A stretch of DNA of 45,850 bases, taken from contig KE561091.1 in NCBI GenBank assembly GCA_000442015.1, positions 1-45,850 of the forward strand, written 5' to 3'. Positions 3,384 through 42,542 of the stretch are shown here, in pieces. The notes under the pieces are model-generated. The model was not told the DNA's origin. It searched no databases and was given only the letters and a program-made list of their open reading frames with translations. The DNA is from Rozella allomycis CSF55 (lineage: Eukaryota). Every line of letters begins with the position of its first letter. Position 1 is the first letter of the stretch. Made by a program: the position numbers and the translations under genes.

Positions 3384-5334
3384 TTAATGAATTTTTGGCA
3401 ATCCACACATTTCACATGTTTCCGGATTCGATTCGTTAATGAAAGTGCAATGAGGACAAGACCAGTGAACACCTATTTTAACTTCTGATGAGATAACAAC
3501 AAAAAGTTTACCGGAACATTTCTCCACTAAATCCCTCCATGACTGCGATTCTGTGAGGAACCAACAAAGTTTGGATTGATCTTTTTTCTTTAATATATCG
3601 ATAATTGTTTCTACATCAGCCTAGAAAATTTAAATTGTTAATTTTTTACTTTGGAAAACCTTTCAATGGATGTTAGATACAACAAGAAGCCAAAGTCACT
3701 TATGTCATTCATAGTAGATATTTTCGCCAAGTCAAATAATTTTGGTTCAGGATATCCTAGCGGGACCCTATTCATTTTGGGAAAAGAATTCGATAGAAAG
3801 AAGGGCGTTTCGTTTTCTGGAAAGCCATGGGTCAGATTTACCACTAAATATTCCACAGGGAATACTGGTTTAGCTGATTGCTGAACTTCAATATTGTATT
3901 CATTCTTTTGCTTAAAAAACACTTCAGGGACATATTTTGTCTTTGTTGGTTCTTGTACTCGTAACAACGACGGGATCGTACAACCTTCAATCAGGTCGTT
4001 TTCCACCAAGCTCATCGCAACATTTGACATTTGATATTCTTTCAGAGAAACATTTCCATCTTCATCGCCTGTAAATAGCAATAAGCACTTTTCTTTACCT
4101 GAAATAACAATCGTGACGAATCTTGAACCGAATTTTCCAATTTTGGCGTATTTAGTCAAAAAGGGGTATTTTGATTGAAATCGTGCAATGAAGATAGCCT
4201 CAAGACCGGAAATAAAGAAAGATTTTGCATGTCTTTTACAAAGTACTTTTCCGTCACCGCTGCCGGCGTCAACTAGATCAGTGTAAACCATACCAACCTA
4301 AATCAGTGTTTTGAATATTTTATACAATTTGTAATCCAACGCAATCCAATAAGTCTTTTAAATTACCCTCCATGGGATCGTGTAGAAGCTCGATTCCATC
4401 AACTGAACCATCTTGAGGTGGTTCATAAATTGCTGAAACGATTGCTTTTATTCCAAGTGGAACCTCATCATAAGCAGCGTAGCGGCCTATTAAAAGTCCA
4501 AATCTTTGTAGACCTGAACTACGCCAAGTTGATAAGAAATCGTCAATAACAAATGAAGAGTCAAATTCAACATGATCTACCATTCTAAATGCCTTTCAAA
4601 ACTGAAATATCATTTTACTTGCGGTTGCAAACTTATTGCAGAAGGTTGACAATAGGAACAAATTCCAGTGGGAAACGGCGCGTGTCTGTCGCATTTCTTG
4701 ACAGAAAAGTCAGGCTCATCAAGTAAAGGAACGTTCGCCATATTGGGATTTTTTATTTTAGTTTTCTTGAGATATGAGTAAAAGGATAAATGCTTTATCT
4801 TGTGTTCCTCGAGATATTTTTCATCAAACGGCTGCAATTTTTAATACGTATCGGTATTACTTCTAAAGGACAACAATAATCACACATTCCGTTATTATTA
4901 TGACGGCAGAATTGTGGATCTTTTGCTCGTAAAATTAGACCGGATTCCTTTTCTCGGTTTCCATCCACATCATCAAATCCAAAATATGAAACAGTCTTAT
5001 TCTCATTTCTGTTTTGCTCGATTTCAAACATATCAACGCGACACTTCAGCAACACAATTTCTCCATGCCTGTTAGACGTAACTGATCTAAATACCTAAGA
5101 CCAACATCTCTAAAAGTATTAATTCCGTCAAAATCACAAATTTTCGTCCCGTTTTCTCTGCATAAAAAGTAATCTTTAAAGTCATATGAATCAACACCAA
5201 TAATTTGCATCAGCGATGCTAAAATTTTTGCATCAATATTGTTTTCAGGATTTACTGTTAGACGATGTAGTATTCCGCTTGGTAACCTCACTCTGACAAT
5301 CTTTTATCAAGGCTATAGCTCGAAAACTTACCAT
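3384..5334 (-). CDS. NPL4: Nuclear protein localization protein 4 (Cdc48 cofactor) with C-terminal NZF/RanBP2 zinc finger; multi-exon
   Basis: CRHNNNGMCDYCCPLE, KIKHLSFYSY, CDRHAPFPTGICSYCQPSAI, AIYEPPQ, FPVEYLVV; last exon WSCPHCTFIN...CEMCGLP; ATG immediately followed by an intron. Confidence 0.95.
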
Positions 5335-6918: not shown

Positions 6919-7686
6919 TCACATATTTTCAAGGCTTAGTATCATTTTTTCTCTTTTGGTTAGTGGAATCAGGCCTCTGAGGTATTTTAATGGGCATTTT
7001 TCATTCCCTGAATGCGCGTTTTTTACACTATCCATTTTAGTTTTAGATATTGTGTTTTGTGCGGATCTTTTTTTGCGGGGCTGTGGAAACACGGTCGAAA
7101 GGCTGTTTGTACAATCGCTGCATAGCGCTAATGACGAAGTGCTCTTCTTGTATCGAAACATTTTGCCACATTGAGCACACTCGTATGCCTAACATGATGT
7201 TTTCGAATATTTACTTTTCTCTTTTTATTCATAGCTTCCGTATTGACAAAGGGGCCAGTGGGGTGCGTGGAAGAGTGTAACCAAACAAAACTTTCTGGAA
7301 TGATGCCCTGTTCTATCATCAGTTTTGCCTTTTTAACAGCCTCGTCATTCAAAAATTCAGTTATATTTTCATATCTCCTGATGAGGTCGCTGTTTATGGT
7401 CCACTCTACAACTTCTGATTTCATAACTATAGAACTACGTTTAATGTGATAAATGATTAGTACAATGAGGCGTCTTCAAAGTAACAAACCAAATGCTCAC
7501 TGCTTTCGTCAACGCTTGGAAGGGCCTCTTCACTCATTAATTTGACAAAAATATCATATTCTTCTTTCAAGACTATCTAAGAACTATTTGTCAAATGTTT
7601 ACTAACGCTGGCCACCAAAATTTGGCATCCTTGTCCTGTGGATCTACAAAAACTACTCTTCCCTCGAAAGGAGAGGCAGTCATCAT
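6919..7686 (-). CDS. PWWP-like domain protein with C-terminal CxxC..CxxC zinc motif; spliced
   Basis: Exon 1 MMTASPFEGRVVFVDPQDKDAKFWWPA; later LVCYFED; after a 26-nt intron AYECAQCGKMF...LCSDC. Confidence 0.6.
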
Positions 7687-7818
7687 GGAAATTTCATAAA
7701 CACGCGAGCGAAAAATATTTCCACCTTTAAGAGGATCAAGACTATAATATGCTACAATTTGCCTTTTCTATTAAGTAATTTCAAATTGTTATGGTTCACT
7801 GCGCCTCGATTTGGTTTG

Positions 7819-10800
7819 ATGACACGAGATCGGCAGCTACCGAATCCACCTATAGGAAAAAGAAAAGATAGCAAAGATAGCTTGAGTGAATTGCATTCAT
7901 TGGTTAAAGAAGATTCTGAAAAGTTTCTCTCATGGAAACCTCCCGCTCCGACGGGTAATTGACATTAATCAAAATGATAGAACCACCAAGTCTCAAGATC
8001 GAGGCAAAGTCGTCTCAAAATAATTCATCGTCAAGCGTTAGTCAACAGCCTATACCAGTGCCATCAACTGCTGGTAGGAGGAAATCTTCTTTTAGCACCA
8101 ATTTCGTCAATAAAATCATTAGATTGTCTAAATTGCCCGGTATTTTTGTAGATAATAAGAAGGTAAGAATGTTGAATAATGTTGAAAAGGACACCAAATC
8201 GGATGCCTTTACAATTGTCAAATGTTTTAATTGTAATGGCGATGTTATTTTTCCAGAGGGAATTTCTCTTAAAAGATGCAAAGAATGTGGAAGTGAGGTT
8301 GGACCGACAATTGGATCATTGGTTCTGGGTGTATTGAATGGCCACAATTTAGCTGAACCTGGACAATGTAAAGCCATATTTTGTTTATAACATAGATCCA
8401 TATTTTCGAATTTTACTGGGGAATCAAGGAGCAAGAACAAAATTGGGTAAAGAATCCAAGTCACCGAGATGGGAAGAGGAATTTACATTGTAACAAATAT
8501 AAACGCAATAAATTTAGCCGGGTGACAGATCATGACCAAAAATTAGTTATAATTCTGTTTAGCTGTGCTAATGGAAAGCCTGGGCCAGGGGATGCCTCAT
8601 TAGGAAAGATAGAAATTCCATTGGCAAGCATTAAGCCGAGGGAGAAGACGAAAGTTTTATTTGGATTTAAACTTAATGAAGAAACAAAAAAGTTTGAAGG
8701 GTTTGTGGAATCACAAAAAAATCTGAATGTTCATTTGCAAAAGCGACGATCGATGAATCAAAATATAGCATCGCCAGAGTTTGGACTTGGTAATAACCCT
8801 GTTATTCTTTTGGAGTTTTCCTTGATTCCCAATCAGAATTATAATGAAATATTCCAAAATGCGTTTGTAAAGCACAAGGAAGCATTAATTTCACATTCTA
8901 CCCCGCATGGATGTATACCAGTGAAGATCATGGTACTTCCAAAGCAAGAACCGTATTACTTGAACATGGTCTATGTCAGTTTAAAACATAAAGCTACCAT
9001 TTCGGAAACCATATCAATTTTGTATGAAAAATTAACAGAGCAAGAGAAGGCTGTTGTTAATGGGATCCAAAATCTGCGAATATCCGAAGTAATTGAAGGT
9101 GCGGGTAAAATATAATACATTTTAAAGACAAGAAAGACTTGCCGATCCCAAAGAGCAACCACTTGTTCAATATGATCATTTGAGAATGGATAACGAAGAT
9201 TTAGAGATTCATTTTTGTTTGAGAACAATAGATACATGCATTAGAGATAAATTAGATATTAAGAAAGATAATTATGCAATTGATGGATTGCATTATGGTG
9301 GCGGTGTAGTTTCCGAAAAGAGAAAATCGTTGAACCAAATCAAGAGAAGATCATCGCAATTTGCGAATATATCAGATACAGAAAAGAAAGAATTTTCAAA
9401 GCTATCCATTGAAAAAGAATTTGAAGAATTGAAGGATGTAATGGATCAGCCAAAGCAAGAAGAGAATGTTACAAGGAGCCATGAGAGTGATAATAAAAGA
9501 TTTTCATTGAATGAAATGTTTGAAATTCCAATTTCTCCACCGCCGAGGTTGAATTCTCCATTTGTGGAAAACAATGAGATTAAGAAGGAGCTTGGGAGTG
9601 TTGAAGAAAAGGTTAGAAATTCCTTTTTAGAATATCAAAATGATTCATCAGACAAAGCTTTGAATGTCCTTGAAGTAAAGTTGGAGGAGGCAATGAAAGA
9701 ACTAGGGTTGAAAGCTAACCAAGTTGAAAAATTGGAATCTGAATTTGAAACATTGAAGTATTTGAATTCAAGTTTAGAAACGGCGCTTGAGAAAGAAAAA
9801 GAAGAAAAGAATAATTTAACACAAGAATTGGAATCTACACAGAGACAATTAAATGAAACTAAAAGTATTTTGGCTGAAAGGGAAGAAGGCCTCTCTCAGT
9901 TCAAAGAAGCAATTCTAAATTCAAATAAACAAATCTCATTAAAATCTTTACAAATTGAAGAATACGAAAAGATAATTGAAATCCTAAAATTAGAAAACGC
10001 TGAATTGAAACAAAAAATAGACCAGACTGAAATAAATGTGAAAGAATCAATAGATGAGAATGAAGATAATGAAAATGATGTAAATGAAAATGGCGAAAAG
10101 GAAGAAGATCAAGAAACGTTAATCACCAATAGTGTTGCTGCAGAAATGAACACAATAGCTAATAGAGAAGACAAAGAAATTCAAACAGATTTCCACAGCG
10201 CCAATTCTTTCAGTTCAATTGCCACTTCCCCAATCTACTTTAAGGATTTCAACACAATTGAATCACAAACTGAAATGATTAATAAATTAGATCAATCAAC
10301 TCACACTGATGTTTCTCATTTTCAAAATCAATTGACTTTAAGTGAAAACATTATCAACACAGATTTAACAGAGTCTAAAGATTTAATAGCGTCTAAAGGT
10401 TTAATAGCGCCTAAAGGTTTAATAGAGTCTAAAATTGATTGCATAGAGAATGTTCAAACAAACAGCGACAATAAACCTATTTCAATTGTTACAGACTCTC
10501 CAATAAATGCTGACAATGTTTTTGAAATGAAATCTTCGCCTTCTGGAAATTCTGGTTTTGATTTTCAAGAAGAAAGAAGCAAAAAGAATGTCAATTTCGC
10601 TCCAATAGTTGTCTTGATAGACGCTGCCCTCGAAGGAAACATTGAAGACGTTCGTTCATTGTTGGAAAAGGGGGTTGATCCCAATTCAGTTAATGAAGAT
10701 GGGATAACTGCGCTGCATTGTGCTGCATGCAATGGTCACGTGGAATTGGTAGATATTCTATTACAGAAAGGTGCTAACGTTAATGCTACAGATGCCGATG

Positions 10801-11187
10801 GATGGACTCCGCTTCATGGTGCCGCTTGTAGAGGCGATTTGGATGTCATAAAGATGCTTCTAGCTAAAGGCGCAAACATCGAAGCGAAAACAGCTGATAA
10901 AGAAACCGCTCTTGATTTAGCAGAAAATGTAGATGTTTTCACTTTATTACAAGGTTATTTCAATAAAATATTTTAAATTAGACTGCAAAGAAAGAAAATA
11001 CAATGGTTCATGTTTAACTGTTCTTTATGACTTTGATCCTTCAAGCGAAATAGAAATGTCTGGTGATGAATTAGCTATTAAGAAAGGTCAAGTCCTGAAT
11101 GTTTTAAATAGAGAAGATTCAGATTGGTGGTTTGTAGAAAATGAGCATGGACTTAGAGGCTATATTCCTTTTTCATTTGTGCAATAA
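7819..11187 (+). CDS. ASPP/PPP1R13-like multidomain protein: Zn ribbon, C2, Ras-association domain, coiled coil, RVxF, ankyrin repeats, SH3; spliced
   Basis: CFNC..CKECG; C2 (DPYFRILLG..RTK..SPRWEEEFTF..LGKIEIPL); RA (ERLADPKEQPL..IHFCLR after a 28-nt intron); KNVNF-APIVVLIDAALEG; GITALH, GWTPLH; SH3 VLYDF..ELAIKKG..DWW..GYIP. Confidence 0.85.
10362..10433 (+). repeat. Coding minisatellite, 4 x 18 bp
   Basis: gatttaacagagtctaaa / gatttaatagcgtctaaa / ggtttaatagcgcctaaa / ggtttaatagagtctaaa encode DLTESK-DLIASK-GLIAPK-GLIESK. Confidence 0.9.
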
Positions 11188-11755: not shown

Positions 11756-12359
11756 TTACACGCTACTATTTTCCTCAATAAATTTTTTCAGTTTCTGGTA
11801 GCTACGTTCTAAGTCGTCATTGATGATGATCAAATCAAACACACCTGCCGTTTTACTAAATTCAATTTCTTTCCTTGCAGCTATAAGCCTCTTCTTAATA
11901 CTTTCATCTGTCTCTGTACCCCTTCCTTTAAGTCTATTTTCAAGAATTTCTATACTCGGGGGTTGTATGGAAACATAGAAGGGATTCAACGATGATCTTT
12001 TCAGTGATAATACCCCTTGCATGTCTATGTCTAAAATACATTGTTTGCCTGATTTAGAAACCTCTAAAACAGCATCTATTGATGTGCCGTAATGATTTCC
12101 AGAAAACTCTGCGTGCTCTATAAACTTTCCTGAATTTACATCCTCTTCAAATTTTTCTCTACTGATGAAGAAATAATCTTTGCCATGCGTTTCACCAGGT
12201 CTAGGACCTCTTGTAGTGTCTAAATTTTATGTTCAGGTAGAAATTTTTACGAGATACTGAAAATCCAAAGCGATTAGGAAAGTCGACAAAAAGTTTCTTA
12301 ATTAATGTGCTCTTCCCGGCACCAGATGGACCGCTTAACACTATCGGACGTTTCGTCAT
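11756..12359 (-). CDS. GUK1: Guanylate kinase
   Basis: [19 protein letters not shown]-loop; [33 protein letters not shown]. Confidence 0.96.
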
Positions 12360-12789
12360 CTGCTATCCAAAATTGTGGCTGATGTAGTACCTTAAATGAA
12401 AAAGATGTTGTTGTCTGACCGGTTGGCATTAAATTTCCGTAACTAGCTCCGGAGAGTATAAATATCGACATCGTTATTTATTAATAAACCCAAATAATTG
12501 GGAACTTTTGAAAATTAACAAGTTTAATATTCTCTTTATTACAACATATATTGTAAAATATATTTAAATATTGGACTGCTGTCTGCTAGTGCTTTTTCGA
12601 AAATGTCTTGAAGAGTTAGATTTTTGAAAGATTATTTGAAAATGATTAGATGATCATGATATAACTGTCTGTGTCAATGATAAATGAGTCGATGGAATGG
12701 TTGTGGATAAACAATAGAAAATTGATTTGAAAATCAGAAAATTGTTTTCCGATTGAGGGTCATTGCCAAGCGTTGTTTATATTTTGATC

Positions 12790-18192: not shown

Positions 18193-21145
18193 TTATTTCT
18201 TTTTAGGTTTCGCCTTTGATTTTTTTTGCTGGAACATTTTGTCTTTGGACACATCTTCATTTTCGGAAATGCTTTCATCTTCAATTTCATCGACATCCTC
18301 ATTTTCAGCTTCGTCATCAATTAACGATTTCTTTTCGACTGGTAAGGCTTTTTTAGACGTTGTGTATAACGAGTAAGGTGTTTTATGAATAGATTTGTTG
18401 TAAGTTCTCGTTAATGAGGATTTCATTTGAGTAGATAGAGTTGGTGTGGGTCGTAGTAAGAATTCGGGTAAAACATCAAAATCTTCTTTGGTGAGATAAT
18501 AATCATCCAGAATTTTAATAGTTTCTTCCACATTGTTCTAATGTTAAAATGATTAATAAGTTACAAATTTTAGCAGTTGGGAATAAAGTTTAGAAGAAAG
18601 AGCTTGAAAGTAGACCAAGCGGAGTTGAGATGAATCAGCAGAAACATTCAAAGAAAGATGTAAAGCCAAATCTTTCAAAATTCGTTGATATTTTAATGAT
18701 TTGGAGTTCATTCCAAGCCAAGAACTAAAATCCAAGCGACCCTGGAGGCGCCCCTTGATGTGATGACATGGCTTGACAGATGAAAGAATACCATGCAAAG
18801 GAGCTAAAGACCAATTTTGGGTAGTTCTAGATTTATTGTAGCGTCAATATTATACCCGTGAATCATTCCATCAACAATGTCAGCATCCGCTATTGAATCA
18901 GCAGCCTTTAAGGTATTCTCCAATGGATCTGAAGAAGTAAAACTTTTTATGTAATTTTCTTGAATCATTAATGGCACAAAAGAATAATCATAAAAATATA
19001 ATTCAAGTCTATCAGATATTGATTTTGATTGATGACTAAATAATTGACCGGTTAAATCAAAAAGTGAAAATTCAACATTTTTCTTATTTTCAGTGGTTCT
19101 GTTTAAGATAATAATGTTTAGTTACAATTTTTTAGCTTGATCATAACCCATGCTGGACTGTGTTGTTTTCCAGGTTGAAATCGTATTGATTATTTGACGA
19201 ATATCAGATTGAGTCCCAGCCACCAGTTGATCTACTGAAGCGGAATCTATTTTCAACCCTTCACGAAAACTAATCATCATAATTCTAGATCTGATTTGAT
19301 TAGCATCTGGCCTATAGCATACAAAACAAATAAATAAATTACCTTTTAAAACGGAGATCAAGGCAATAATTGGCAAGTGAGCGAACTTTTTGACTGCTTC
19401 TATCATTGCAAATACAAATTATAGGCGTCTTTGTCTTTTTAATTATTTGAATAAGTTCTTGCATTCCACCACGATCGCCTGATGACATCCCATCAACTTC
19501 ATCCATCAAAATTAGTTTCTCTAAAACAATAAATGTCCATTTTACCTTTTCTTTCGTCTGCTGAGTGGTTTCACCTTTGAAAAATTGATTCAAAGATTTA
19601 TTATCAATTAAATGCTTCACAGTAGCTTCCAACGATTTCTTACTGCGAGTATCAGATGCGTTAAACTCAATAATAGAATAATTTAGCTCTGATGCAACCA
19701 CAAACACAGAACTGGTCTAAAATATTCAATAAGAATATAAAACTTACCTTTCCTATACCTGGAGGCCCTGAAATTAAAACTGCCTTTTGAGGTGTTGAAC
19801 TAGTCCACCCTTTCAACCAATTAACCAGTTTGTCAACATTGGATTTGTTGCCTACAAGATCTTTTATTTTTTTGGGTTTGTATTTGTCAGTCAAAAGTTG
19901 AAAGTCATTGCCATCCACTACACTCATTTGCGAATCGATTTGGCTGGAATTTTGCGTGTTGCCATTCAAGACCGTTGCACTTTGAGACGCTATCATATTC
20001 TGTGAATTCAATTGGCTTGAATTGGGAATCCTTTCTATTGTATTCGCTTGAGAACTCTCCTGCATCTTTGATTCCCATTCATTTAGTTGCCTCTCTTTGC
20101 CAGGAAGTGATTTTATCAAATTAAAAAATTCTTCTTCGTTTATACACTTTAGATTTAAAGCTTGGGCTTTAGCTAACTTTGTCTGCCCTGGTTCACTACC
20201 AACCACAAGGTAGCTCGTCTTCCTGCTAGGGGCACTTGTGACACGCCTACAACTTAACTTTAGTCTATTTACCCGCCATAACGTTTAATCAAATCTTCAG
20301 CTTCTTCTCGAGTTAAACTACAGTAATTTCCAGTCAAAACAAAGGTCATGCCAGACATACAATTATCAGCACATTCTGGAATTTCCATTGCTATGCCTTC
20401 TACTTTAGGGGCTTCAAGTTTTTTCTTATACTCATAATAACTCGTCTCAAAGCTATGCAACTCTTATTTGAATTTCTTTTTCGGCTCATCTATCACTTTT
20501 TCTTCACTTTTTTCATTCATTCTTTCTTTCAAAATCAAAGCAAAATTTTCATCATTCATAACCTTTATCTCTAGCTGATCCAATTTTTCCTTTCTTGCAA
20601 TAGAAACTGGCTTATTTGTAAGGTAAAAGTCGGCCGTTTTCCCTACATTTGCCAATACGCGCCTATGAATACTAAATCATAGTAATACCCTCCATTGTTG
20701 GTTATAATTTGCTTAATTTCATCTTTACTCCTTCCCATAAATTCTTCATCGTGTACAACAAAAACCAACGATTTCAAAATGCTGGATTTGGAAGACACCA
20801 AGGTTTCTAAAACATCATNAAGATACCAAGGTTTCTAAAACATCATCAGTTTCAGCCAACTCCAACTTTGGCTTTTCCTTTCCTTCAGGATTTACTTCGA
20901 CATTGTTCTCGTCATCAGATTCTAACCTAAAAATAAATATACAAGTAGGCTTACATGCTAATTCTCGCCTTCTTTCTTGGAACCACACGAATTTCATCAT
21001 CGCTTTCTTCAATTTTTACATAAACTTTTGGACAAGTGTTTTCCTTATCAACTACAGGTTTCACTATATCCACGGGATTTGATTTTCTATAATATTTGTA
21101 TCATAAAATTTACTTTGTTTGAAAGTAGTTTCTTAAATCTTTCAT
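18193..21145 (-). CDS. RFC1: Replication factor C large subunit; multi-exon
   Basis: BRCT (GMTFVLTG..REEAEDLIKRYGG..TKLAKA), Walker A SGPPGIGK, EFNASDTRSK, LIMDEVDGMSSGDRGG, KSSLTRTYNK. Confidence 0.95.
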
Positions 21146-23759: not shown

Positions 23760-25328
23760 TTAGCAATCACCAAGCAGAAATTTGTAGACAAGCAAGCCGA
23801 CATCTCGATATTTTAAAAGATTACGCGTGCCTAGATTCAAGAAAAATGCTTTGATATCTGGACCGATGCCTGTCTCTTTGAAAATTATTCTAAAGTAACA
23901 ACCATTTCTTGGGATTTTAGGTGTTATATGTAAGTTGAACGATTCTACTTCGAATTCAACATGAGATAGAGGCTTCGGTTGGCGATTTGTTACAAGGGTA
24001 TCGATGAGATTTGAAAATGGAAAATAGTTAAAAACGTATAGCAGACACTTTAATAAATCGTGAACTATTTTGTAAAATGCTTGATTTAAAGTGAATAACA
24101 AATAGTAAACAAAAACTGTTGGAAAAAGGAAAGTCAATACCGTAAACATAATTGTACCTAAAAGTAATTGATTAGAAGAAAAATCGGATGGTTCAAATCT
24201 ATTTCTCAAAACGTTATATTTTTTCCCTTGGAATAAATGAAACAACGAAATTAGTAGCCCGATGTGCCAATGGTATATTCTTGACGTCATTGAATAAAAC
24301 AATGTGAAGTGAAAGTATGAAAATGAGAAAATATCAATTATGAGAGACAAACCTAAACTTAATCCAATAATTGACACGAAAGCTATGATTACGAGGATAA
24401 ATGGAAGAGCCCATTTCAGTGGAAGAATAGCGCTAGTCCAAATCTTTAATATCCAAAGAAATAGTTCCCCCAAAAATTTATCCAAGTTGTTGTTCAACTT
24501 CAAGCCAGCAGGCCAACCCATCAACCAATGTATCATTTCTTCCAGTTTGTACAGCGCACTATTAGTATACACGTCAACAATTTTTTGTGATAAGCATTTG
24601 TGATGATACAAAATGAAGAAACAAAATAGTGATCCAACTAGAGTGTCAACAATTAACTGAACACATTCTGATCGACTTTTCCATTTCTTATTCCTTTTTA
24701 GCTGAGTTAAGAAAAACGAAGTATTAAAAATTCTGTTGCTATTTTCAGACTTTTCATTATGCTTGTTGTGATGAATTGCGCGCGGGTTTTCGATACCCGC
24801 GTCGTCGATTTTATTTTGGACCGCATTATTTAAAAATGGAGTTTCGCTTATGCATCTTATCATCCTCGTAAAATCACTCTCGTAGTTAAATTTTTCATCA
24901 ACGAGTTGTTTTACAAATATGGCCCTCTTTATTGACAACATGGAATAAAAGAATATCTGAAAGTCCTTTATGGCAAATGCATAATTGTAGCAGTGTAATT
25001 GTCTTAAAATAGGTATTTTATGTTCCACTATCTCAATTTCAATCCATAAATTTGCATTTTCCCTGTATTTAGCAAATTCTTGTTCTCTATCTGCTGGTTT
25101 TTCCAAGTAACAATAACCGATTATTAAAGCTGGTGAAAACTGTGATTCTCTATTATCATAGTGTCGAACTTTGTTATCCACATTTTGTAATGAATCATCA
25201 AAGACAATTGACGAAATACATGCTGTAAGACTATCAACATTCCAACCAACAAGATAGCCTATACTAAATTCAATTGGAATAAAATGATCCTTTGGCCATA
25301 CAATTTTGCTAATTTCTGCTTCCACCAT
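23760..25328 (-). CDS. GPI1: GPI-GlcNAc transferase subunit Gpi1/PIG-Q
   Basis: GYLVGWN, WLMGWPAGLKLNNNLDKFLGELFLW, SLFHLFQGKKYNVLRNR, QLLLGTIMFTVLTFLFPTVFVYY; probable start MVEAEISK. Confidence 0.93.
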   Translation of the reverse strand: MVEAEISKIVWPKDHFIPIEFSIGYLVGWNVDSLTACISSIVFDDSLQNVDNKVRHYDNRESQFSPALIIGYCYLEKPADREQEFAKYRENANLWIEIEIVEHKIPILRQLHCYNYAFAIKDFQIFFYSMLSIKRAIFVKQLVDEKFNYESDFTRMIRCISETPFLNNAVQNKIDDAGIENPRAIHHNKHNEKSENSNRIFNTSFFLTQLKRNKKWKSRSECVQLIVDTLVGSLFCFFILYHHKCLSQKIVDVYTNSALYKLEEMIHWLMGWPAGLKLNNNLDKFLGELFLWILKIWTSAILPLKWALPFILVIIAFVSIIGLSLGLSLIIDIFSFSYFHFTLFYSMTSRIYHWHIGLLISLFHLFQGKKYNVLRNRFEPSDFSSNQLLLGTIMFTVLTFLFPTVFVYYLLFTLNQAFYKIVHDLLKCLLYVFNYFPFSNLIDTLVTNRQPKPLSHVEFEVESFNLHITPKIPRNGCYFRIIFKETGIGPDIKAFFLNLGTRNLLKYRDVGLLVYKFLLGDC

Positions 25329-25380
25329 TTGGAAATATAGAGAATACTTTAGGAAAGTATCAAAAATATGAAATAGTGCT

Positions 25381-28245
25381 TTATTTTGATTCATATCGAT
25401 TAAACCATGTGTGGTTACACGCTATTTCAGCGGTTATTCTTTTATCGACATCGGGTTCCAGTAGTGATCGCAATAAACTTAGGGATTCTAATCTGTAATG
25501 GTATAATTCATTACGGTTTGAAAGTACAAAGGGTATTCGAAGCCTGAATTTTAGAATTTCTTCAACATTGTAGAATGGATTTTCTTTGTATATTAATGTG
25601 TACAGAAGAACGCCAAGTGCCCAAACATCTTGAGGCGGGCCAGTATAAAATTTTCCCGACATGATTTCTGGAGCCTAAAATACTACATTTATATTGATGT
25701 TACAGCATAATCAAGTGTTCCACAAAATGACTTGAAAGGTTTTCCGGGCTTCACATAGCTGCTAGACCCGAAATCAATTAATTTGATATTACAATATTGA
25801 TCAAGAATAATATTCTCATCCTATTTAAATATACTCTGTCTAAAATACCTTGATGTCCCTATGTACTATGCCATGTTTATGCAAATGACAAATGGCCTGT
25901 AGAACCTGATAAAAAATATGTTTCAACTCCATTTCAGACATGCCTGTATGAATTTCTATGTAATCAAATAAGTCCATTCCATATCCATGCAGCTTCATTT
26001 CAACGTAATAATAGTCTCTGTCTTCGAAAAACCGTGTCATATCCACCAAATTAGGATGTGAATTGTAATGAAGAAAATTAAGTATTTTGATTTCACTTGG
26101 GACTAGGCCAAGTTTGGAATCTTTCTGCCATGATTCTATTAAGATTTTGTTCTTAAAAATTGATTTTAATACATATTTGGTCTATGAAATATAACTGGGC
26201 ATATTACTCTATCTGAATCACCTTTTCTTCTCACTAACTTGACATGCCCATAAGCACCTTCCCCCAAATCGTCTACAACTTCGTAGTCGGACATTTTAAC
26301 ATTCTTGTTGGGAAATTCATCATCTGAATAATCTAAATTCTCTTTATGTATTGGGGACTCTAGCAAACCAAAAATGTCATAAGATGAACTAGATTCTGTC
26401 ACCTGAATATCACTTTCTATCGATTGTCCCTTTCTCGGAAGTGAAAATGAAATCCAGCACATGTATTGAATAATATCCTTCTCTCTCAGTAATTTTATTT
26501 GCACCAGAACACCAAATTTTGTTCCGTCACGGTGATATGCAATACAAGGAATTCGTTTCGAAATGTTAGTAGTTGGACCGTCTTTTGGTAACGATTCTGG
26601 CAGTAAATTGGAATCTTTCAAAACTTGATTAAAATCAGGCAATAATGAATGTATAAACCATTTGTTTTCTAGTTCTTTGGCCGATATACCAAACAAATAT
26701 TTCGTAAAAAGTGAATTCGTCGATATGATTAATCCATTTCTATCGGTAAATATTACACCCGACAATTCAGGGACAGTTATTACATCAAGCTGAGAAAGAT
26801 TGTATTCTATTTCCCTTATTTGTAGCACCGCAGGTATAGATATCTGATTCCCACTAATGCCATAATACTTTCCTTCTGTAATCATGGCTCTAAATCTTGG
26901 ATGAACTGCAAAGCCATTTTTATGCTCTTTAATTTCAACTAAAGGCGCATCGTTTGGTGTAGGTCTGCTAGCAAAGCCGTCAAGGCTCAATGCAGGTACT
27001 AGTCTAGCTAAATTCAAGTTTGTCAGAGTGCCCTCTGTATATTCAAGTAAATCCAGAAGCATCGGTGTAGCTTCAATCAACTCTTTTATGTTACCCTTTC
27101 GAATTTACCAGTCAATCTTACTTCTGTCGTAATGACAATTTTCAGCACTTGTTCATCCACCTTTTGTAGAATCCATAAAAATATATCCTTTCCTTCATTA
27201 TCCTTGTGTACTCGTAAATAGACTGAAGCAGATACTGTTTTTTGGGAGTCATTCTGATTTATTAAACGGGCCTATATAGAAAAATTGAACTTCATATTTT
27301 ACTATTTTTCCTTTAATTATGGCTTGATCAATCATTCCTTGATGCTTACTTATTATCGTGCGATATTTTTCAGCATAGAATGGCGTGAAAAACGTCCAAA
27401 CTGACTTGCCGTGAGTTTCCTCGACATTGACACCCAAAAGATATTCCAGAGATTTATTAGTCATTAATATTAAAAAATCTTTGTTTGTAACGATTATAGC
27501 ATCATCTGGTATCATGTCAAATCTGTAAGACCAATGTGCTACAGGTATGTGTGTGGGTGTTCTAACAATTGACGCTGGTATCAAATCAAGATCTTTGGTT
27601 TCAATTTTTATAGCGTTTTCAACGTTGTCGTTGCCTTTGCCCTTGTCCTCCTTTACTTTCTTTTCTAATTTTGCGGAGGATGTTTTCCACAATTTATCTT
27701 TCAGGCTCATAAATTCCAATGCTCTTTGCCAAGCGGACACTCTGTATTTTGCACCGGACTTTTTATCAGCAAATGATATACCAAGCGGGGAGGAGAGTAT
27801 CTGGTTGATGTCTTCTTCTTTTGCAAGACCATTGACTCGCATCCTGCTAAGAGCAAAATTGCTTTCATTTAAATCTTTCAGCTTTACGGATCTGTTTGAA
27901 TATTGTTCACCATTTTACGAAGTAGGCATTGGTGGAGAAATAAAATCTGACAAAACCTTAATTGATGAAACAATTAGGGCATGATCATTTAAGTTTAATT
28001 CATATCTATGCATCCAATCTTCAAGAGAAATAAGATCTAGCTGTAGTATGGATAACTTCAAAGTTTCTGTAACTTCTTCACTCCTGAATCTTCAAACAAG
28101 AGCAGATTTACCTTTTCCGTAACGTCAAAAGCTCATCATGGCTTAGATTCTGCGATTGTTTAATTTTTTCAATTATTGAAGGGAGCTCTAAATGCACTAG
28201 AGATGAGATCTCCTCTCTCATGGCATTTGTTGTCGGAGAAAGCAT
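25381..28245 (-). CDS. PAS-domain serine/threonine kinase (PASK/Psk-like); multi-exon, 5' end approximate
   Basis: PAS-like segments (DAIIVTN.., GVIFTDRNGLI..), LGEGAYGHV, GMDLFDYIE, HRDIK-DENII, IDFGS, FCGTLDY, PQDVWALGVLLYTL. Confidence 0.88.
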
Positions 28246-28359: not shown

Positions 28360-28991
28360 ATGAAAGAAGAGACTGAAGAGCCTCTATACACAGTGGAAAA
28401 GATTTTGAAGAAACGCACACAAAAAGTAAAAACATTTTTAGGCTAACACAGGGTCGACTTCAATACCTTATAAAGTGGGAAGGGTATCCTGAGGACGAAA
28501 GCACATGGGAATATGCGTGTGGCATACATGCATACGACTTGATCGATGAATTCGAAAATAAGTTAAAGGCTCAAAGGGGAAAGAGAAAATCGACTGCCGA
28601 GAACACCCAGGAGGAAGAAGAATCGGAGGTTTCATCAAGTGAAAAGCCTAAAGTTAAAGAAGAAGAGAGACAACCGGAAGAAGAGAGACAGCCAGAAGAA
28701 GAAAAACGCCCAGAAGGAGAGAGAAGGTCTAAAAAGAAAAAGGCGGCCGTTAAGGAAGAAGAAGCAGGTGTTCTTGATGATCCTTCAAAGTATGATTTTG
28801 ACTGGGAAGAGAATGTGAGCAAAATAGTAAACTTAGAGAAGACTTCCCAGAAAGGAGAATACTTAGCTACTATATCCTGGAAACACATTAAAGGTCTTTC
28901 TATCTTTCCTATGAGCGTTTGCAGAGAAAAATGCCCACAAAAGTTGATTGATTTTTTCTGTAAATTTATTCACTTTTCGAAACATTTATAA
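28360..28991 (+). CDS. HP1/Swi6-like chromo + chromo-shadow protein; spliced
   Basis: YTVEKILKKR..-GRLQYLIKWEGYPEDESTWE chromodomain; acidic/basic hinge; shadow domain CREKCPQKLIDFF..IHF. Confidence 0.88.
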
Positions 28992-39049: not shown

Positions 39050-40687
39050 ATGGAAAATATTGATATTTACGATCAAATAGAATTTTTGAGATCTAAAATG
39101 TCTTTGTTTCGACTATTGTTACACGATGACAGCAAAGAGAGACAGCAGGGTTTACAAAAGCTACTTGAAGAATTAGACTCCCGGAAAGAAAAAGAAACGA
39201 ATATTCCAGAGTTATATCTATTGACATTCGCAAGACATTTTTATCAATCGTTTGATGAAAATATCAAAGAAAAGTTACTCGAAGTTATAAAGGTTTGCTG
39301 TCTCCTCGTGGTTAATATAGATGTATAATATTAAGAGATTGCATAACTCATGTTCATTTTTCTTTTGTGAAAGTTACAACAACACTGATATCCATCCTTG
39401 TAAGGGAATACAAGGCAAGTGGGAGGATACTGAATTTTATGCAAATATTAGCACCATTTCCTCAATTCCTTGAAAAATATCTAAGATGCTTTCACAGAAC
39501 GTTCGAGCAACAAGGGCCTATTCCCGTAATTTGGAGGTATTTCATCGCAATGATGGTAATTAAATGCGCAATATATAGAATAGGCTGCTTCTAGATTCCA
39601 ATGTAGTTATTTGTTTGATTTATTTAAATTTGATTTCTTGCTTCACGGTGGAAATCCTGAATGGATCAAATACCCATACCGATCAGAAAAACTATTTTCG
39701 CTTGACTATGTGAATTCAACCCTTGCCTATCAGCCATGGAGGCTGAAGTCTGAAGATTTGGAGGTAATAGATATCAATATAACGGAAGTGAGATATTGTT
39801 AAAGAAGAAAGGTTGGTCAAAGGCTGAACTTGTACAAGCGATCACGATTATTTGCCAGGTGCACTCAATGTGTGGCATTGCATTTGGTTGTGGCGTTACT
39901 CCCGAGATTGAACTGCCAAGTGGTTCCATTATTGGCGACCGAAGAGAACCCTCGATCGAGAGTAAACCTGTGCAATCTAATTCGCACTTGGATTTTGTTG
40001 AAAACACCTCACTATTGATTGATAAGCTTAAAAATAACAATAATAATACGAATAACATCCAATTACCAGAGAATAGAGTAAATTTTGAGAAATGTGACGT
40101 TATCGATATGGTGGAGGTTGGCGCGGCGCAAAACAATGAAAATTCCGACTTTAAAGGGTTTTCAAATGTGGAGATGAAACATCAAGATTTTGATGTTCAT
40201 TCTTCTGAATATTCGATATTTAGACTACTGGATTATTCATGGGATGATCATGGGATGATTTTACTGTCGAAGTACTTACCAGACTTGGGAGATTTGTTTA
40301 GTATTGAATTTTACGAAATAAAAAACATGACTGACAAAAGGTATAATCTTTATCATCTTTTTGTAAAGTGTTTATGAGAAAAAGGAAGGGGAAGAAGAAA
40401 TTGATACAGGGCCTTTTAGACAAGCTATTTGGTATTATGTGCTACGTATTAGTGGAATGTGTCATGATGATTATGATTATCAATGCGTGAATAGATACTT
40501 ACCCAGAGATATCAAGTCGTACATAAAGAAGTGTGTTTTCTATCCAAATAATGTTAAAAGAGAAGATTTTGATAATTTGGGTATAAATTTGCGCAGTGAA
40601 GAAAAAGTACATGTAAATCTACTTGCTGTGGAAGCAAGAAAGCAAGCGTGTTTGCTGTATTCATTGTTTGCATTGATGCATAGTTGA
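39050..40687 (+). CDS. SESN: Sestrin; multi-exon
   Basis: SGRILNF..GPIPVIWRYFIAMM-AASRFQCSYL..FLLHGGNPEW; LAYQPW; WSKAELVQAI; DYSWDDHG; DTGPFRQAIWYY; HDDYDY; EKVHVNLLAVEARKQACLLYSL. Confidence 0.93.
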
Positions 40688-40780: not shown

Positions 40781-42385
40781 TTATAGGATGCAACATGTAT
40801 TGGTACTATTCGGATCTCTTATAACATTTAACCTTGTAAAATAATTAACATAAGAGATGCGATTTTGATTCACGTTAAGAATTGTATCAATTTCATCGAG
40901 TTGACGAGCCAAGTCCAGAATCACTGCATTACCAGGGTAGTCTTGAACTTCAACTGTTTCCATTTCTCTGATTATAGTCTCAATTTCTCTCATTTTAGCA
41001 TCAAGATTTTCTTCAAACTCTTTCAAGAGATTAAAATGATGAAGATAATCCGCATATGTAGGCTTTAGTGCAGTCAATTCTGGAATGACCAGTGCATTTT
41101 CCAATAGTTCCAATTTTCCCTTGAAATGGCTTTTAAAGAATTGAAGAGCCTTTGAAAATTCAAACTCAAGCTTTTTGTATTTTGAGTCTCTTACAAAGAA
41201 TTCAACTGTTTTCAATCCTGATTCTTCATATCGATTATCAAAATAAAAATTTTGTAATTTTATTGATTCAATTTTGTTTATGCGATTTCTTAGTTTTTCT
41301 AATGCGTTATTAAAAGTTACAATAGATTTTCCAATATCGAGTCTAAAATTGGTAACCTTCTTTTCCAGAGTTTGTAATTGATTCTTTAAATGCTCAAACT
41401 GGGTAATCTCATCTTTTAATGTTATAGTTTCACTATCAAATACTTTTTCAAGTCTTAAAGTTTCCTCCGAAGATTTATCATTTGCAATTTCAAAAGAAGA
41501 TGGTCTTAAAGCTTTGATTTTCTTTGATCTTTTAATTAAATCAATAGAAAATTCTATGATATTCTTTTGTGTAGCTTCATATCTCGCTAATAATTCTTGC
41601 CGCTGCTGTTTAAGCGTTTCAATTTCAACAGTTTTCTTCTTATAAAGTTCTAATGCTTCTTTAAATTCATTGGCATCATATTTTTTCCCGTTATTTGATA
41701 AACATCTTTTGTAGATTTCTTCATATGCCATCGCTACAAATCTTTTTCTTGATTCCGTAAAAGTCATCACATTGTTCCCTTCAAATGTTGCATAATGACG
41801 GTAAAACAGGAACCCGGAAGAATTTATGAATTTTGATGAATGAGGAGCGAATTCTAACATCTTAGACTTGAATTCCTTTATATATTCTTCTTCAACGCCA
41901 TCATTTCTTAAAATACTGTCCGCGAATGTAAAAATAAACACTATGTGCTCGAATACATCCTTGGATATTAATAAATTAACGTTATTAAACACGCTCTTGA
42001 TATTTTCTTGCAATGCCCAAACAGGAACCAAATACAATATCGTGTCAACCCCATCAGGATAATTTTCAATCAAAGCTCCTGATATTTTAATAGCTGTTTC
42101 AACGCCTTGTTCGCTAGATCCGTCCTTTAATCCTAAAGTACCAGCAACTCTTAATTTTAAGTCTCCAAATGAACACTCTTGAATGCTCATTTTGTTCTCT
42201 TTTATTTCTCTATTGCTAGGTTTCAAGTCACATTTGTTATCTAATACATCGACCAGACTTGATTTCCCAGATCCAGGTGAGCCCAGAATCACTACATTCA
42301 ATGGTTTATGGCAAATACTATCAACTGGAATCGCTATATTTACGCCGACCAAAAGGATAAAAATAAAAGGAAAAAAGATCCACAT
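40781..42385 (-). CDS. AIG1/GIMAP-like P-loop GTPase with signal peptide, coiled coil and C-terminal CaaX; intronless
   Basis: MWIFFPFIFILLVGVNIA; G1 GSPGSGKS; G3-like VAGTLG; YPDGVDTILYLV; G4 IFTFAD; heptad-rich C-terminal half; ends TCCIL-stop. Confidence 0.78.
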   Translation of the reverse strand: MWIFFPFIFILLVGVNIAIPVDSICHKPLNVVILGSPGSGKSSLVDVLDNKCDLKPSNREIKENKMSIQECSFGDLKLRVAGTLGLKDGSSEQGVETAIKISGALIENYPDGVDTILYLVPVWALQENIKSVFNNVNLLISKDVFEHIVFIFTFADSILRNDGVEEEYIKEFKSKMLEFAPHSSKFINSSGFLFYRHYATFEGNNVMTFTESRKRFVAMAYEEIYKRCLSNNGKKYDANEFKEALELYKKKTVEIETLKQQRQELLARYEATQKNIIEFSIDLIKRSKKIKALRPSSFEIANDKSSEETLRLEKVFDSETITLKDEITQFEHLKNQLQTLEKKVTNFRLDIGKSIVTFNNALEKLRNRINKIESIKLQNFYFDNRYEESGLKTVEFFVRDSKYKKLEFEFSKALQFFKSHFKGKLELLENALVIPELTALKPTYADYLHHFNLLKEFEENLDAKMREIETIIREMETVEVQDYPGNAVILDLARQLDEIDTILNVNQNRISYVNYFTRLNVIRDPNSTNTCCIL

Positions 42386-42542
42386 CCCCTGTAATCTGAG
42401 AAGATTCAATTTTCTTAACAAATAAAGATCATGATTAATGTACTTAGAGCCAAATCAAAAATTAGGAAAATGTTTTCGTCATAAGATTAACGTCATATTT
42501 GCCCGTTGTCGNAACCTCGCCACTAGTACTACAACTTTACTA

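Follow-up and report, generated by a model that had tools for sequence, protein, structure and literature searches.

A six-exon gene model in Rozella allomycis for a candidate PP1-targeting protein with an ASPP-like ankyrin-SH3 C-terminus

A preliminary description of the locus at positions 7819-11187 of Rozella allomycis contig KE561091.1, the whole of which (45,850 nucleotides) is the window analysed here, raised the question of whether an opisthokont that is neither an animal nor a yeast encodes a PP1-targeting protein built like the animal ASPPs. To this is joined the question of how much of the gene is covered by the public annotation. We rate it as slightly better than an even bet that there is one six-exon gene here, encoding a PP1-targeting multi-domain subunit with an ASPP-like C-terminal clamp. 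The gene model has the following features:

7819-11187, plus strand: proposed gene as a whole, with six exons that hold 3,231 coding bases (stop included) for 1,076 amino acids
7819-7954, plus strand: exon 1 (amino acids 1-45 and one further base); N-terminus basic and rich in Ser, outside the public model
7955-7980, plus strand: intron 1, 26 nt, GTAATT..ATAG; the frame is closed unless it is spliced
7981-8367, plus strand: exon 2, zinc-ribbon-like motif plus the first C2 strands, outside the public model; codon score +0.146
8163-8189, plus strand: possible additional intron, 27 nt, GTAAGA..AAAG, in frame and stop-free
8368-8395 and 8490-8517, plus strand: introns of the C2 region, 28 nt each
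8753-8755, plus strand: start ATG of the public model, first ATG in the open frame 8396-9115, inside exon 4
9105-9132, plus strand: intron 4/5, 28 nt, GTAAAA..CAAG, joining two long open frames
10954-10981, plus strand: last intron, 28 nt, GTTATT..TTAG

The joined frame is open from the ATG at 7819 through the TAA at 11185-11187, and five GT..AG introns of 26-28 nt each join its six open pieces. Between the ATG at 7819 and the first ATG (7686) of a minus-strand frame at 7591-7767 lie 132 nt, as counted by hand, and the ATG at 7974 may be an alternative start. Other genes on the contig likewise contain GTA-donor introns 25-31 nt long, at 18 places picked by hand from 149 candidates, and the intron at 9105-9132 resembles these 18 in its 28-nt GTA form. 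The public model splices 9099-9132 instead (34 nt, GTGCGG donor), and its last intron spans 10954-10990 (37 nt). If 8163-8189 were spliced as well, an alternative model of 1,067 amino acids would result; since this stretch is in frame and contains no stop, the sequence does not decide between the two forms. In codon scoring, all seven exon pieces were best in the proposed frame among the six frames, with scores of 0.146-0.348 as compared to 0.109-0.350 for 15 training ORFs, a reference that itself lies within the training set. Exon 1 scored +0.171 in frame and was negative in the other five frames. One run against RNA data gave a single 34-base match of 90-95% likeness, in which no splice joints were seen.

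The public protein of this locus, O9G_003701 (P0121 in the residue numbering used below), has 787 amino acids and starts at an internal Met, its residues 1-115 being residues 79-193 of exon 4. It appears to miss 284 N-terminal residues, including the C2-like domain, and restoring them would alter the predicted function of the protein. The uninterrupted frame 8396-9115 holds both the public start codon and the latter half of the C2-like region (8518-8752), so that the C2 domain, if real, would not be part of a separate upstream gene. Between the N-terminus and the docking motif we distinguish the following features:

8223-8288, plus strand: CxxC-x14-CxxC zinc-ribbon-like motif, Cys 127, 130, 145 and 148 of the model
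8313-8690, plus strand: C2-like domain, about amino acids 157-258, spread over three exons
8909-9236, plus strand: ubiquitin-like/RA-like region, model amino acids 337-432, split by the intron 9105-9132
9650-10060, plus strand: coiled-coil-like region, P0121 about 288-424, from a crude heptad scan
10361-10433, plus strand: 18-nt tandem repeat, present in 4.1 copies (score of 104 in Tandem Repeats Finder)

The C2-like domain and the full N-terminus were judged exon by exon and not as a joined sequence. Exon 3 (30 amino acids) matched the Pfam C2 profile (PF00168) over positions 24-55 of 104 with an E value of 0.016 and 15.8 bits, the cut-off being 22. At E <= 10 it had five PDB matches, three of them to C2 of Extended synaptotagmin-2 (best E 0.0013) and the others to a 'C2 domain-containing protein-like' entry and to an 'XYPPX repeat family protein', the fold of which was unchecked. 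The exon 4 portion of the C2-like region alone gave 0 PDB matches and 0 Pfam families. The cysteine motif is present, but its zinc-ribbon matches in Pfam are faint (Ribosomal_S27e, E 0.032; ZnF_RZ-type, E 0.14; A2L_zn_ribbon, E 0.35). We hold with moderate confidence that a predicted C2 domain and a CxxC-x14-CxxC zinc-ribbon-like motif are encoded here. Many calcium-binding C2 domains carry Asp-Pro-Tyr. At this position the joined model has Tyr-Pro-Tyr, a replacement which suggests that binding by the C2-like domain is likely calcium-independent.

Splicing of the intron at 9105-9132 had been proposed to restore an RA-domain signature. This intron does join the two frames, and the public model splices here too, but the signature lacks profile support, since Pfam on P0121 returned no RA, RA_2 or ASPP2-like_RA (PF21801) match even at E <= 10. 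In the ESM Atlas, the region resembled the RA domains of RIN2, afadin, Ste50, RASSF4 and RASSF7 in structure (TM 0.54-0.67), with a feature score of only 0.86, and its AlphaFold2 single-sequence model had a pLDDT of 34 and was unusable. These language-model look-alikes, the one line of evidence for it, point weakly to an RA/ubiquitin-like domain. In the linker preceding the RVxF motif, the tandem repeat encodes a six-residue unit (SKDLIA / SKGLIA / PKGLIE). A proline-rich region is absent from P0121, which contains 25 Pro among its 787 residues and one PxxP. The remaining features make up the C-terminus:

10584-10598, plus strand: KNVNF, P0121 600-604, matching the loose RVxF consensus [RK]-x(0,1)-[VI]-{P}-[FW]
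10599-10952, plus strand: ankyrin repeats, three full ones and then a degenerate C-terminal fourth
11014-11184, plus strand: SH3 domain, Pfam SH3_1 E 1.1e-12, SH3_9 E 7.1e-11

Three to four ankyrin repeats and a C-terminal SH3 domain are firmly predicted. The ankyrin part matched Ank_4 (E 1.1e-25), Ank (E 1.3e-24) and Ank_2 (E 7.5e-24) in Pfam, and in the predicted structure helix pairs occupy module residues 20-129, with pLDDT values of 77-89 across repeats 1-3. The final SH3 strand is the C-terminal end of the protein. In the single-sequence model the SH3 domain was poorly placed (pLDDT 35-60), and a complex prediction of the ankyrin piece with the SH3 exon scored 0.02, the mark being 0.34. 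When searched by itself against the PDB, the SH3 domain had p47phox, GRB2 and further generic SH3 domains as its closest matches, and the best 60 of 299 included no ASPP. The joined frames give the domain order that had been described, namely zinc-ribbon-like, C2-like, Ubl/RA-like (weak), coiled coil, RVxF, ankyrin and SH3.

Ankyrin repeat 1 starts at P0121 605, directly after KNVNF, and the sequence continues with APIVVLIDAALEG..., DGITALH and DADGWTPLH. A PP1-docking motif, RVxF or RARL, immediately upstream of ankyrin repeat 1, which is an ASPP-family trait, is found here in the loose consensus only, as KNVNF does not match the strict form [RK][RK][VI]x[FW]. The docking motif of ASPP2, residues 921-924, has the same place before the repeats (PMC6377682). 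The loose consensus is matched once in the 787 residues of P0121 and 0.85 times on average in shuffled versions; a match beginning within 11 residues upstream of ankyrin repeat 1, a window that was chosen post hoc, occurred in 1.1% of 20,000 shuffles.

A parallel between this C-terminus and that of ASPP2 had been drawn in the preliminary description. Its elements are in place, and a structure search favours ASPP, but a sequence search ranks MYPT1 higher. With Foldseek against the PDB, the 12 matches listed for ranks 1-13 were all ANK-SH3 chains of ASPP2 (4a63, 6ghm_D, 1ycs_B) or iASPP (6dcx, 9gfo, 2vge), ranking above designed ankyrin proteins. Their alignments are colinear, covering 204-228 columns with the 202-residue query, at 29-32% identity and E values of 1.2e-10 to 9.7e-9. 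Owing to the poorly placed SH3 domain of the single-sequence model, the TM scores were only 0.40-0.48, with an rmsd of about 10 A, and an ASPP-like ANK-SH3 geometry is not demonstrated by these model-based matches. VIA-align returned only ankyrin-repeat entries, nearly all of them designed, and ranked no ASPP chain. In the ESM Atlas, the nearest feature cluster was 'Apoptosis-stimulating of p53 protein 1-like' (0.97, 176 shared features), and the structural neighbours included ASPP2-like, PPP1R16A and PPP1R12A; OSTF1 (0.97) and caskin-2 (0.96), which have only the ANK+SH3 composition in common, scored as well.

Single residues of ASPP2 were compared by their spacing counted from the RVxF Phe and not by alignment. 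In ASPP2, D932 and E938 of ankyrin repeat 1 bind R261 of PP1 (PMC6377682). D932 lies at +8, as does D612 in P0121, and the counterpart of E938 is Asn 618. Ligand residues of the ASPP2 SH3 domain are W1066, D1074/E1075, E1094, W1097 and P1110 (PMC6377682). Their counterparts in P0121 are Y735, D748/E749, D765, W768 and P782. SH3 ligand residues of such type are shared by most SH3 domains. From the RVxF Phe to the Pro-x-Asn of the SH3 domain there are 188 residues in ASPP2, 180 in P0121 and 183 in the proposed splice form. If the RARL motif of iASPP ends at residue 625, as we take it to do, iASPP N657 and H665 fall on P0121 N636 and H644. Both iASPP residues are required for PP1 clustering (PMC12543280).

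The searches for homologues agree with the earlier impression of an unfamiliar architecture. Exon 4 matched only P0121 itself among 1.84 billion representatives, exon 2 matched none of 16 candidate public proteins of 72-230 amino acids at E <= 10, and residues 690-787 of P0121 matched only P0121 among 60 candidates; no homologue of the non-ankyrin parts was found in these searches. Exon 5 matched 206 proteins significantly, each of the 120 listed being an ankyrin protein with multiple repeats. A metagenome scan gave three loci with ankyrin-only matches, the one inspected being an ordinary ankyrin protein without SH3. For the RVxF motif with repeat 1, designed ankyrin proteins made up nearly all of the best 60 PDB matches, alongside a few natural multi-repeat ones. 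A literature survey covering fungi, evolution, Monosiga, Capsaspora, holozoa, chytrid, Rozella, Amoebozoa, early animals and the family entries KOG0515, PTHR24131 and IPR047163, with subscription journals and supplementary files outside its scope, found no claim of ASPP beyond animals.

Grouping with MYPT or generic ankyrin proteins had been named as an outcome that would speak against an ASPP relative, and on this point the two kinds of search part: PDB sequence scores favour MYPT1, while Foldseek favours ASPP. In a phmmer search of P0121 against the PDB, MYPT1 (1s70_B) reached 135 bits, and its one colinear stretch, residues 596-723 to 30-157, passes 1e-20 unaided and begins 4 residues upstream of KNVNF; no ASPP chain was in the best 60 of 267 matches (down to 125.6 bits), and MYPT1 was not in the best 50 Foldseek rows. 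The protein could accordingly be a member of the wider class of RVxF-ankyrin PP1 subunits (as MYPT/PPP1R12 and PPP1R16) that gained its SH3 domain independently and works like an ASPP without being an orthologue. In favour of this reading, MYPT1 is the best natural few-repeat match in these 60, the SH3 domain alone shows no ASPP affinity, relatives of the N-terminal domains were not detected, and the combination of ankyrin repeats with SH3 has arisen repeatedly, to judge from the OSTF1 and caskin rows. However, MYPT1 lacks an SH3 domain and is richer in repeats, its MyPhoNE motif (RxxQ[VIL][KR]x[YW]) had no match in the Rozella protein, and its higher score may merely reflect that both are near the ankyrin consensus. 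A colinear arrangement in which RVxF precedes four repeats and an SH3 domain adjoins them at the C-terminus, within 5-8 residues of the ASPP2/iASPP length, is moreover unlikely to have arisen twice, and we consider the independent gain unlikely, if worth keeping in view. A generic ankyrin-SH3 adaptor unconnected with PP1, in which KNVNF is a chance match, seems to us the least probable of the alternatives. The shuffling average, the unmatched strict form, the generic SH3 domain and ankyrin repeats near consensus (DARPins, 40-50% identity) would fit with it. Nevertheless, a match before the repeats is rare in shuffles, even though the window was post hoc, the spacing of Asp 612 is that of ASPP2 D932, and the place before the repeats is that of the docking motif in ASPP2 (921-924, PMC6377682) and in MYPT1 (alignment from chain residue 30).

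For the N-terminal half, the alternative is that the public annotation is correct, with the start at ATG 8753 and the upstream zinc-ribbon and C2 frames untranslated or on another transcript. P0121, the sole public protein, begins there, the C2 match lies below the Pfam cut-off, and conservation of exons 1-4a is unsupported, as no relatives were found. Yet the open frame extends 357 bases upstream of this ATG (8396-8752), with a full coding score (+0.231) from 8518 on, and exon 3 matches C2 domains specifically, a domain which requires the flanking exons. Three canonical introns of 26-28 nt restore a single frame, without a stop between the C2 part and the remainder. We regard the shorter protein as rather improbable, and prefer the six-exon gene with the ASPP-like C-terminus.

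Read in this way, the protein is probably a PP1-targeting scaffold working like ASPP, as judged from its sequence. The ASPP-like clamp would be formed by the C-terminal ~190 residues: KNVNF would occupy a hydrophobic groove on the PP1 catalytic subunit, and ankyrin repeat 1 would contact PP1 through an acidic face. For the C2-like domain with the zinc-ribbon-like motif, the Ubl/RA-like domain and the coiled coil of ~135 residues, a site of action at a membrane is probable, perhaps under the control of a small GTPase, to which they may target the protein. As for its descent, the host, Rozella allomycis, is indeed a non-animal, non-yeast opisthokont, but kinship with the ASPPs is unproven. The likeness hints at a pre-animal age for this docking module, and the Rozella protein is an ASPP-like candidate. 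It is a tentative proposal, which we think has something less than an even chance, that an ASPP-type PP1 clamp (RVxF, four ankyrin repeats and an SH3 domain reading the PP1 C-terminal tail) is older than animals and p53, that the opisthokont ancestor had it within a C2 membrane-targeted Ubl/RA scaffold, and that it was kept by Rozella and lost by yeasts and other Dikarya, PP1 targeting and not p53 control being ancestral. Rozella is not known to possess p53. Should the protein be truly related to the ASPPs, the family's origin would shift from animals back to the animal-fungal common ancestor, and a p53-independent, PP1-centred role would be ancestral in a family of medically important PP1 regulators. 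Since the word 'ankyrin' is absent from a review of 2019 on the Ser/Thr phosphatases of fungi (PMC6506691), a fungal-lineage PP1 subunit of ankyrin type would be new to this field.

Among known systems, the ASPP family (PPP1R13B, TP53BP2, PPP1R13L; Drosophila ASPP, C. elegans APE-1) has the same succession of docking motif, four ankyrin repeats and terminal SH3 domain. With ASPP2 the Rozella protein shares the spacing of the PP1-contact residues, kept within 5-8 residues, and with the family an upstream helical or coiled-coil region and possibly, as in ASPP1/2, a Ubl/RA domain. Unlike the ASPPs, it has no proline-rich region, it carries a C2-like domain and a zinc-ribbon-like motif upstream of the Ubl/RA-like domain, its SH3 sequence is not specifically ASPP-like, its RA domain is undetected by Pfam, and its host is not an animal. 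MYPT1/PPP1R12A resembles it in an RVxF motif followed immediately by PP1-contacting ankyrin repeats and is the natural PDB sequence that aligns most strongly in one colinear stretch, but differs in having more repeats, no SH3 and a MyPhoNE motif, where the Rozella protein has three to four repeats and an SH3 domain. Both C2 domains of E-Syt2 can be aligned with exon 3, although its score against the C2 profile stays under the Pfam threshold. Two further PP1 regulators with RVxF and SH3 are fungal, namely Bud14 (S. cerevisiae) and Tea4/Wsh3 (S. pombe). They are set apart from the Rozella protein by having no ankyrin repeats and another order of motif and SH3. Bud14 is listed among the RVxF-dependent Glc7 subunits (PMC6506691).

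The window has a G+C content of 30-39% and is crowded with eukaryotic genes split by very short introns, and it comes from Rozella, an early-branching fungus-related parasite whose host is the water mould Allomyces. On the forward strand, from 7819 to 11187, six open pieces follow one another in shifting frames. When five GT..AG introns of 26, 28, 28, 28 and 28 nt are spliced out, a single frame of 3,231 bases is obtained, coding for 1,076 amino acids. One of them, 9105-9132, is the 28-nt intron by which the preliminary description had joined open frames at this locus, as it indeed does. With a codon log-odds score trained on 15 long ORFs from the same window, the proposed frame was the highest for seven of seven exon pieces (0.146-0.348), while the other five frames were lower, and below zero for five of the pieces; scores of 0.109-0.350 were obtained for the 15 ORFs used in training, a range that comes from the training set itself.

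A window scan on both strands for GT..AG candidates of 18-69 nt, required to join two frames of at least 60 codons, yielded 149 candidates, many of them alternative acceptors sharing one donor. From these, 18 places outside the locus were picked by eye, all with GTA donors and 25-31 nt long, most commonly 28 nt; the criteria (GTA donor, 24-32 nt) bias the choice toward such introns, and the result is not a length distribution. Short GTA-donor introns are common in this contig. Gene callers untuned to such very short, uniform introns may miss exons elsewhere in the Rozella genome, and exons at the locus seem to have been missed in the same way.

For this locus, the protein search yielded a single public protein, P0121, the 787-residue 'hypothetical protein O9G_003701 [Rozella allomycis CSF55]'. 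It was also the sole match of exon 4 (195 aa) among 1.84 billion cluster representatives, with exon 4 residues 79-193 being 100% identical to P0121 residues 1-115. Since P0121 starts at ATG 8753, the earliest ATG in a frame that stays open upstream as far as 8396, and exon 2 is absent from public proteins of 72-230 aa, the 284 N-terminal residues of the joined model are new with respect to the annotation. The introns of P0121, 9099-9132 (34 nt) and 10954-10990 (37 nt), differ slightly from ours; the 28-nt alternatives 9105-9132 and 10954-10981 are closer to the introns picked in other genes, and the choice changes the protein by two residues at the 9099/9105 site and by three at the 10981/10990 site.

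Several ordinary neighbouring genes were recognised by Pfam:
3638-4297, minus strand: Npl4
11756-12362, minus strand: guanylate kinase
19667-20284, minus strand: BRCT/Rad17 piece
23760-25421, minus strand: Gpi1
28377-28991, plus strand: HP1-like protein with chromo and chromo-shadow domains
A clear match to sestrin, a gene mostly discussed for animals, lies at 39754-40377 (+) (Pfam PA26, 'p53-induced protein (sestrin)', E 2.3e-27), and its frame carries on over a 28-nt intron candidate at 40341-40368. The 557-aa frame at 40781-42454 (-) has a sub-threshold match to AIG1-type GTPases (E 2.8e-5, 24 bits, cut-off 27). Divergent from the locus is the neighbour at 7591-7767 (-), and just 132 nt separate its first ATG from the start proposed here (7819); its first exon contains 'FWWPALV', which resembles a PWWP-domain pattern, and it had no match in Pfam. 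No PP1 catalytic subunit was found within the window.

The preliminary description had listed C2, zinc-ribbon and RA domains besides the ankyrin repeats. The 30-aa exon 3 alone aligns with positions 24-55 of the 104 of Pfam C2, below threshold (E 0.016, 15.8 bits, cut-off 22), and three of its five PDB matches at E <= 10 are to Extended synaptotagmin-2, involving both C2 domains (E 0.0013-0.0042); the other two are a 'C2 domain-containing protein-like' entry and an 'XYPPX repeat family protein'. The exon 4 part of this region gave no matches of its own in Pfam or PDB. We consider a C2 domain moderately well indicated by these similarities, seemingly one that lacks the usual calcium-binding aspartates; if real, it belongs to the same protein, because its last strands and the public start ATG lie in one uninterrupted frame. 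For the zinc ribbon there is a CxxC-x14-CxxC motif with only faint Pfam matches, and its assignment as zinc-ribbon-like is likewise of moderate strength. The RA signature did not hold up in Pfam, where no RA profile matched at E <= 10, PF21801 (ASPP2-like_RA) included. What the region has are look-alikes in ESM Atlas, by features (0.86, a mere lead according to the Atlas's own notes) and by structure (RA domains from RIN2, afadin, Ste50, RASSF4 and RASSF7, at TM 0.54-0.67). These look-alikes hint only weakly at an RA domain; the AlphaFold2 model made without alignment was unusable, at a pLDDT of 34. Residues 288-424 of P0121 are coiled-coil-like in a crude heptad scan. P0121 contains no proline-rich region, which counts against an ASPP. 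The disordered linker ahead of the RVxF motif contains a repeated six-residue unit, encoded by an 18-nt tandem repeat at 10361-10433 (+) that is present in 4.1 copies.

In the C-terminal module, the ankyrin repeats (Ank_4, E 1.1e-25; Ank_2, E 7.5e-24) and the SH3 domain (SH3_1, E 1.1e-12) are firm in Pfam. The parallel with ASPP drawn earlier was recovered by structure: when an AlphaFold2 single-sequence model of residues 586-787 (pLDDT 63; repeats 1-3, 77-89; SH3, 35-60) was compared with PDB by Foldseek, the 12 rows listed for ranks 1-13 were all ASPP2 or iASPP chains (E 1.2e-10 to 9.7e-9, 204-228 aligned columns, 29-32% identity), followed from rank 14 by designed ankyrin proteins over about 110 columns. 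The TM of these ASPP matches is 0.40-0.48 with an rmsd of about 10 A, so that the ankyrin-SH3 geometry is not established by the single-sequence model, and VIA-align picked up only the repeats. By features, the nearest ESM Atlas cluster is ASPP1-like (0.97), with OSTF1 (0.97) and caskin-2 (0.96), which share composition alone with the module, scoring similarly; by structure, the neighbours in the Atlas are, among others, ASPP2-like, PPP1R16A and PPP1R12A. The parallel was not recovered by phmmer against PDB, where the best 60 of 267 matches (cut at 125.6 bits) contained MYPT1 and no ASPP chain. MYPT1 (135 bits) aligns in one colinear stretch from four residues ahead of KNVNF through all four repeats, and is the only natural protein among the few of these 60 passing 1e-20 with a single stretch unaided. 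For the SH3 alone, the nearest sequences were p47phox, GRB2, Pex13, spectrin, Src and Crk, with no ASPP in the best 60 of 299 matches, a further point against. The best metagenome 'relative' (L001 5704-6657) was rejected as an orthologue: it is an ordinary ankyrin protein without SH3, whose contig looks eukaryotic and whose neighbour is a WD40 splicing-factor-like gene.

As for the RVxF motif announced before the repeats, P0121 has a single match to the loose consensus, KNVNF 600-604, one residue ahead of repeat 1, but none to the strict form; MyPhoNE and SILK motifs are absent from P0121. Shuffled proteins contain 0.85 loose matches each, and 1.1% of 20,000 shuffles had one at the pre-repeat place, a window picked post hoc. 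The ASPP2:PP1 structure report describes three contact surfaces: RVKF 921-924, the repeat 1 acidic residues D932 and E938 binding PP1 R261, and the SH3, which grips PxxPxR of the PP1 tail via W1066, D1074/E1075, E1094, W1097, P1110, N1112 and L1113 (PMC6377682). Counting from the motif Phe, D932 corresponds to D612 in P0121 and E938 to N618, and the P0121 SH3, with an RT loop three residues longer, carries Y735, D748/E749, D765, W768, P782, S784 and F785 at the ligand places. Most SH3 domains share these residues, which indicate competence, not kinship. Provided that residue 625 is the last of the iASPP RARL motif, an assumption that would fit an equal spacing in the two ASPP proteins, iASPP N657 and H665 map to P0121 N636 and H644. 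Both iASPP residues are required for PP1 clustering (PMC12543280).

The product is probably a PP1-targeting scaffold, in which the catalytic subunit would be held by KNVNF, repeat 1 and SH3 by analogy with ASPP2. The coiled coil might oligomerise or bring in partners; the fly ASPP coiled coil brings in RASSF8 and Ccdc85 (PMC6377682), and worm APE-1 is localised by an N-terminal helix (PMC12543280). The C2 and Ubl/RA-like domains could set the complex at the membrane.

The literature searched yielded no published ASPP from a non-animal; in orthology databases, this protein may already be classed among the ASPPs. A wide-ranging review on Ser/Thr phosphatases of fungi never uses the word 'ankyrin' (PMC6506691). 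In our rating, the protein combines a C-terminal clamp like that of ASPP with an N-terminus unlike that of the described ASPPs, none of which has the N-terminal zinc-ribbon-like motif and putative C2 domain of the Rozella protein.
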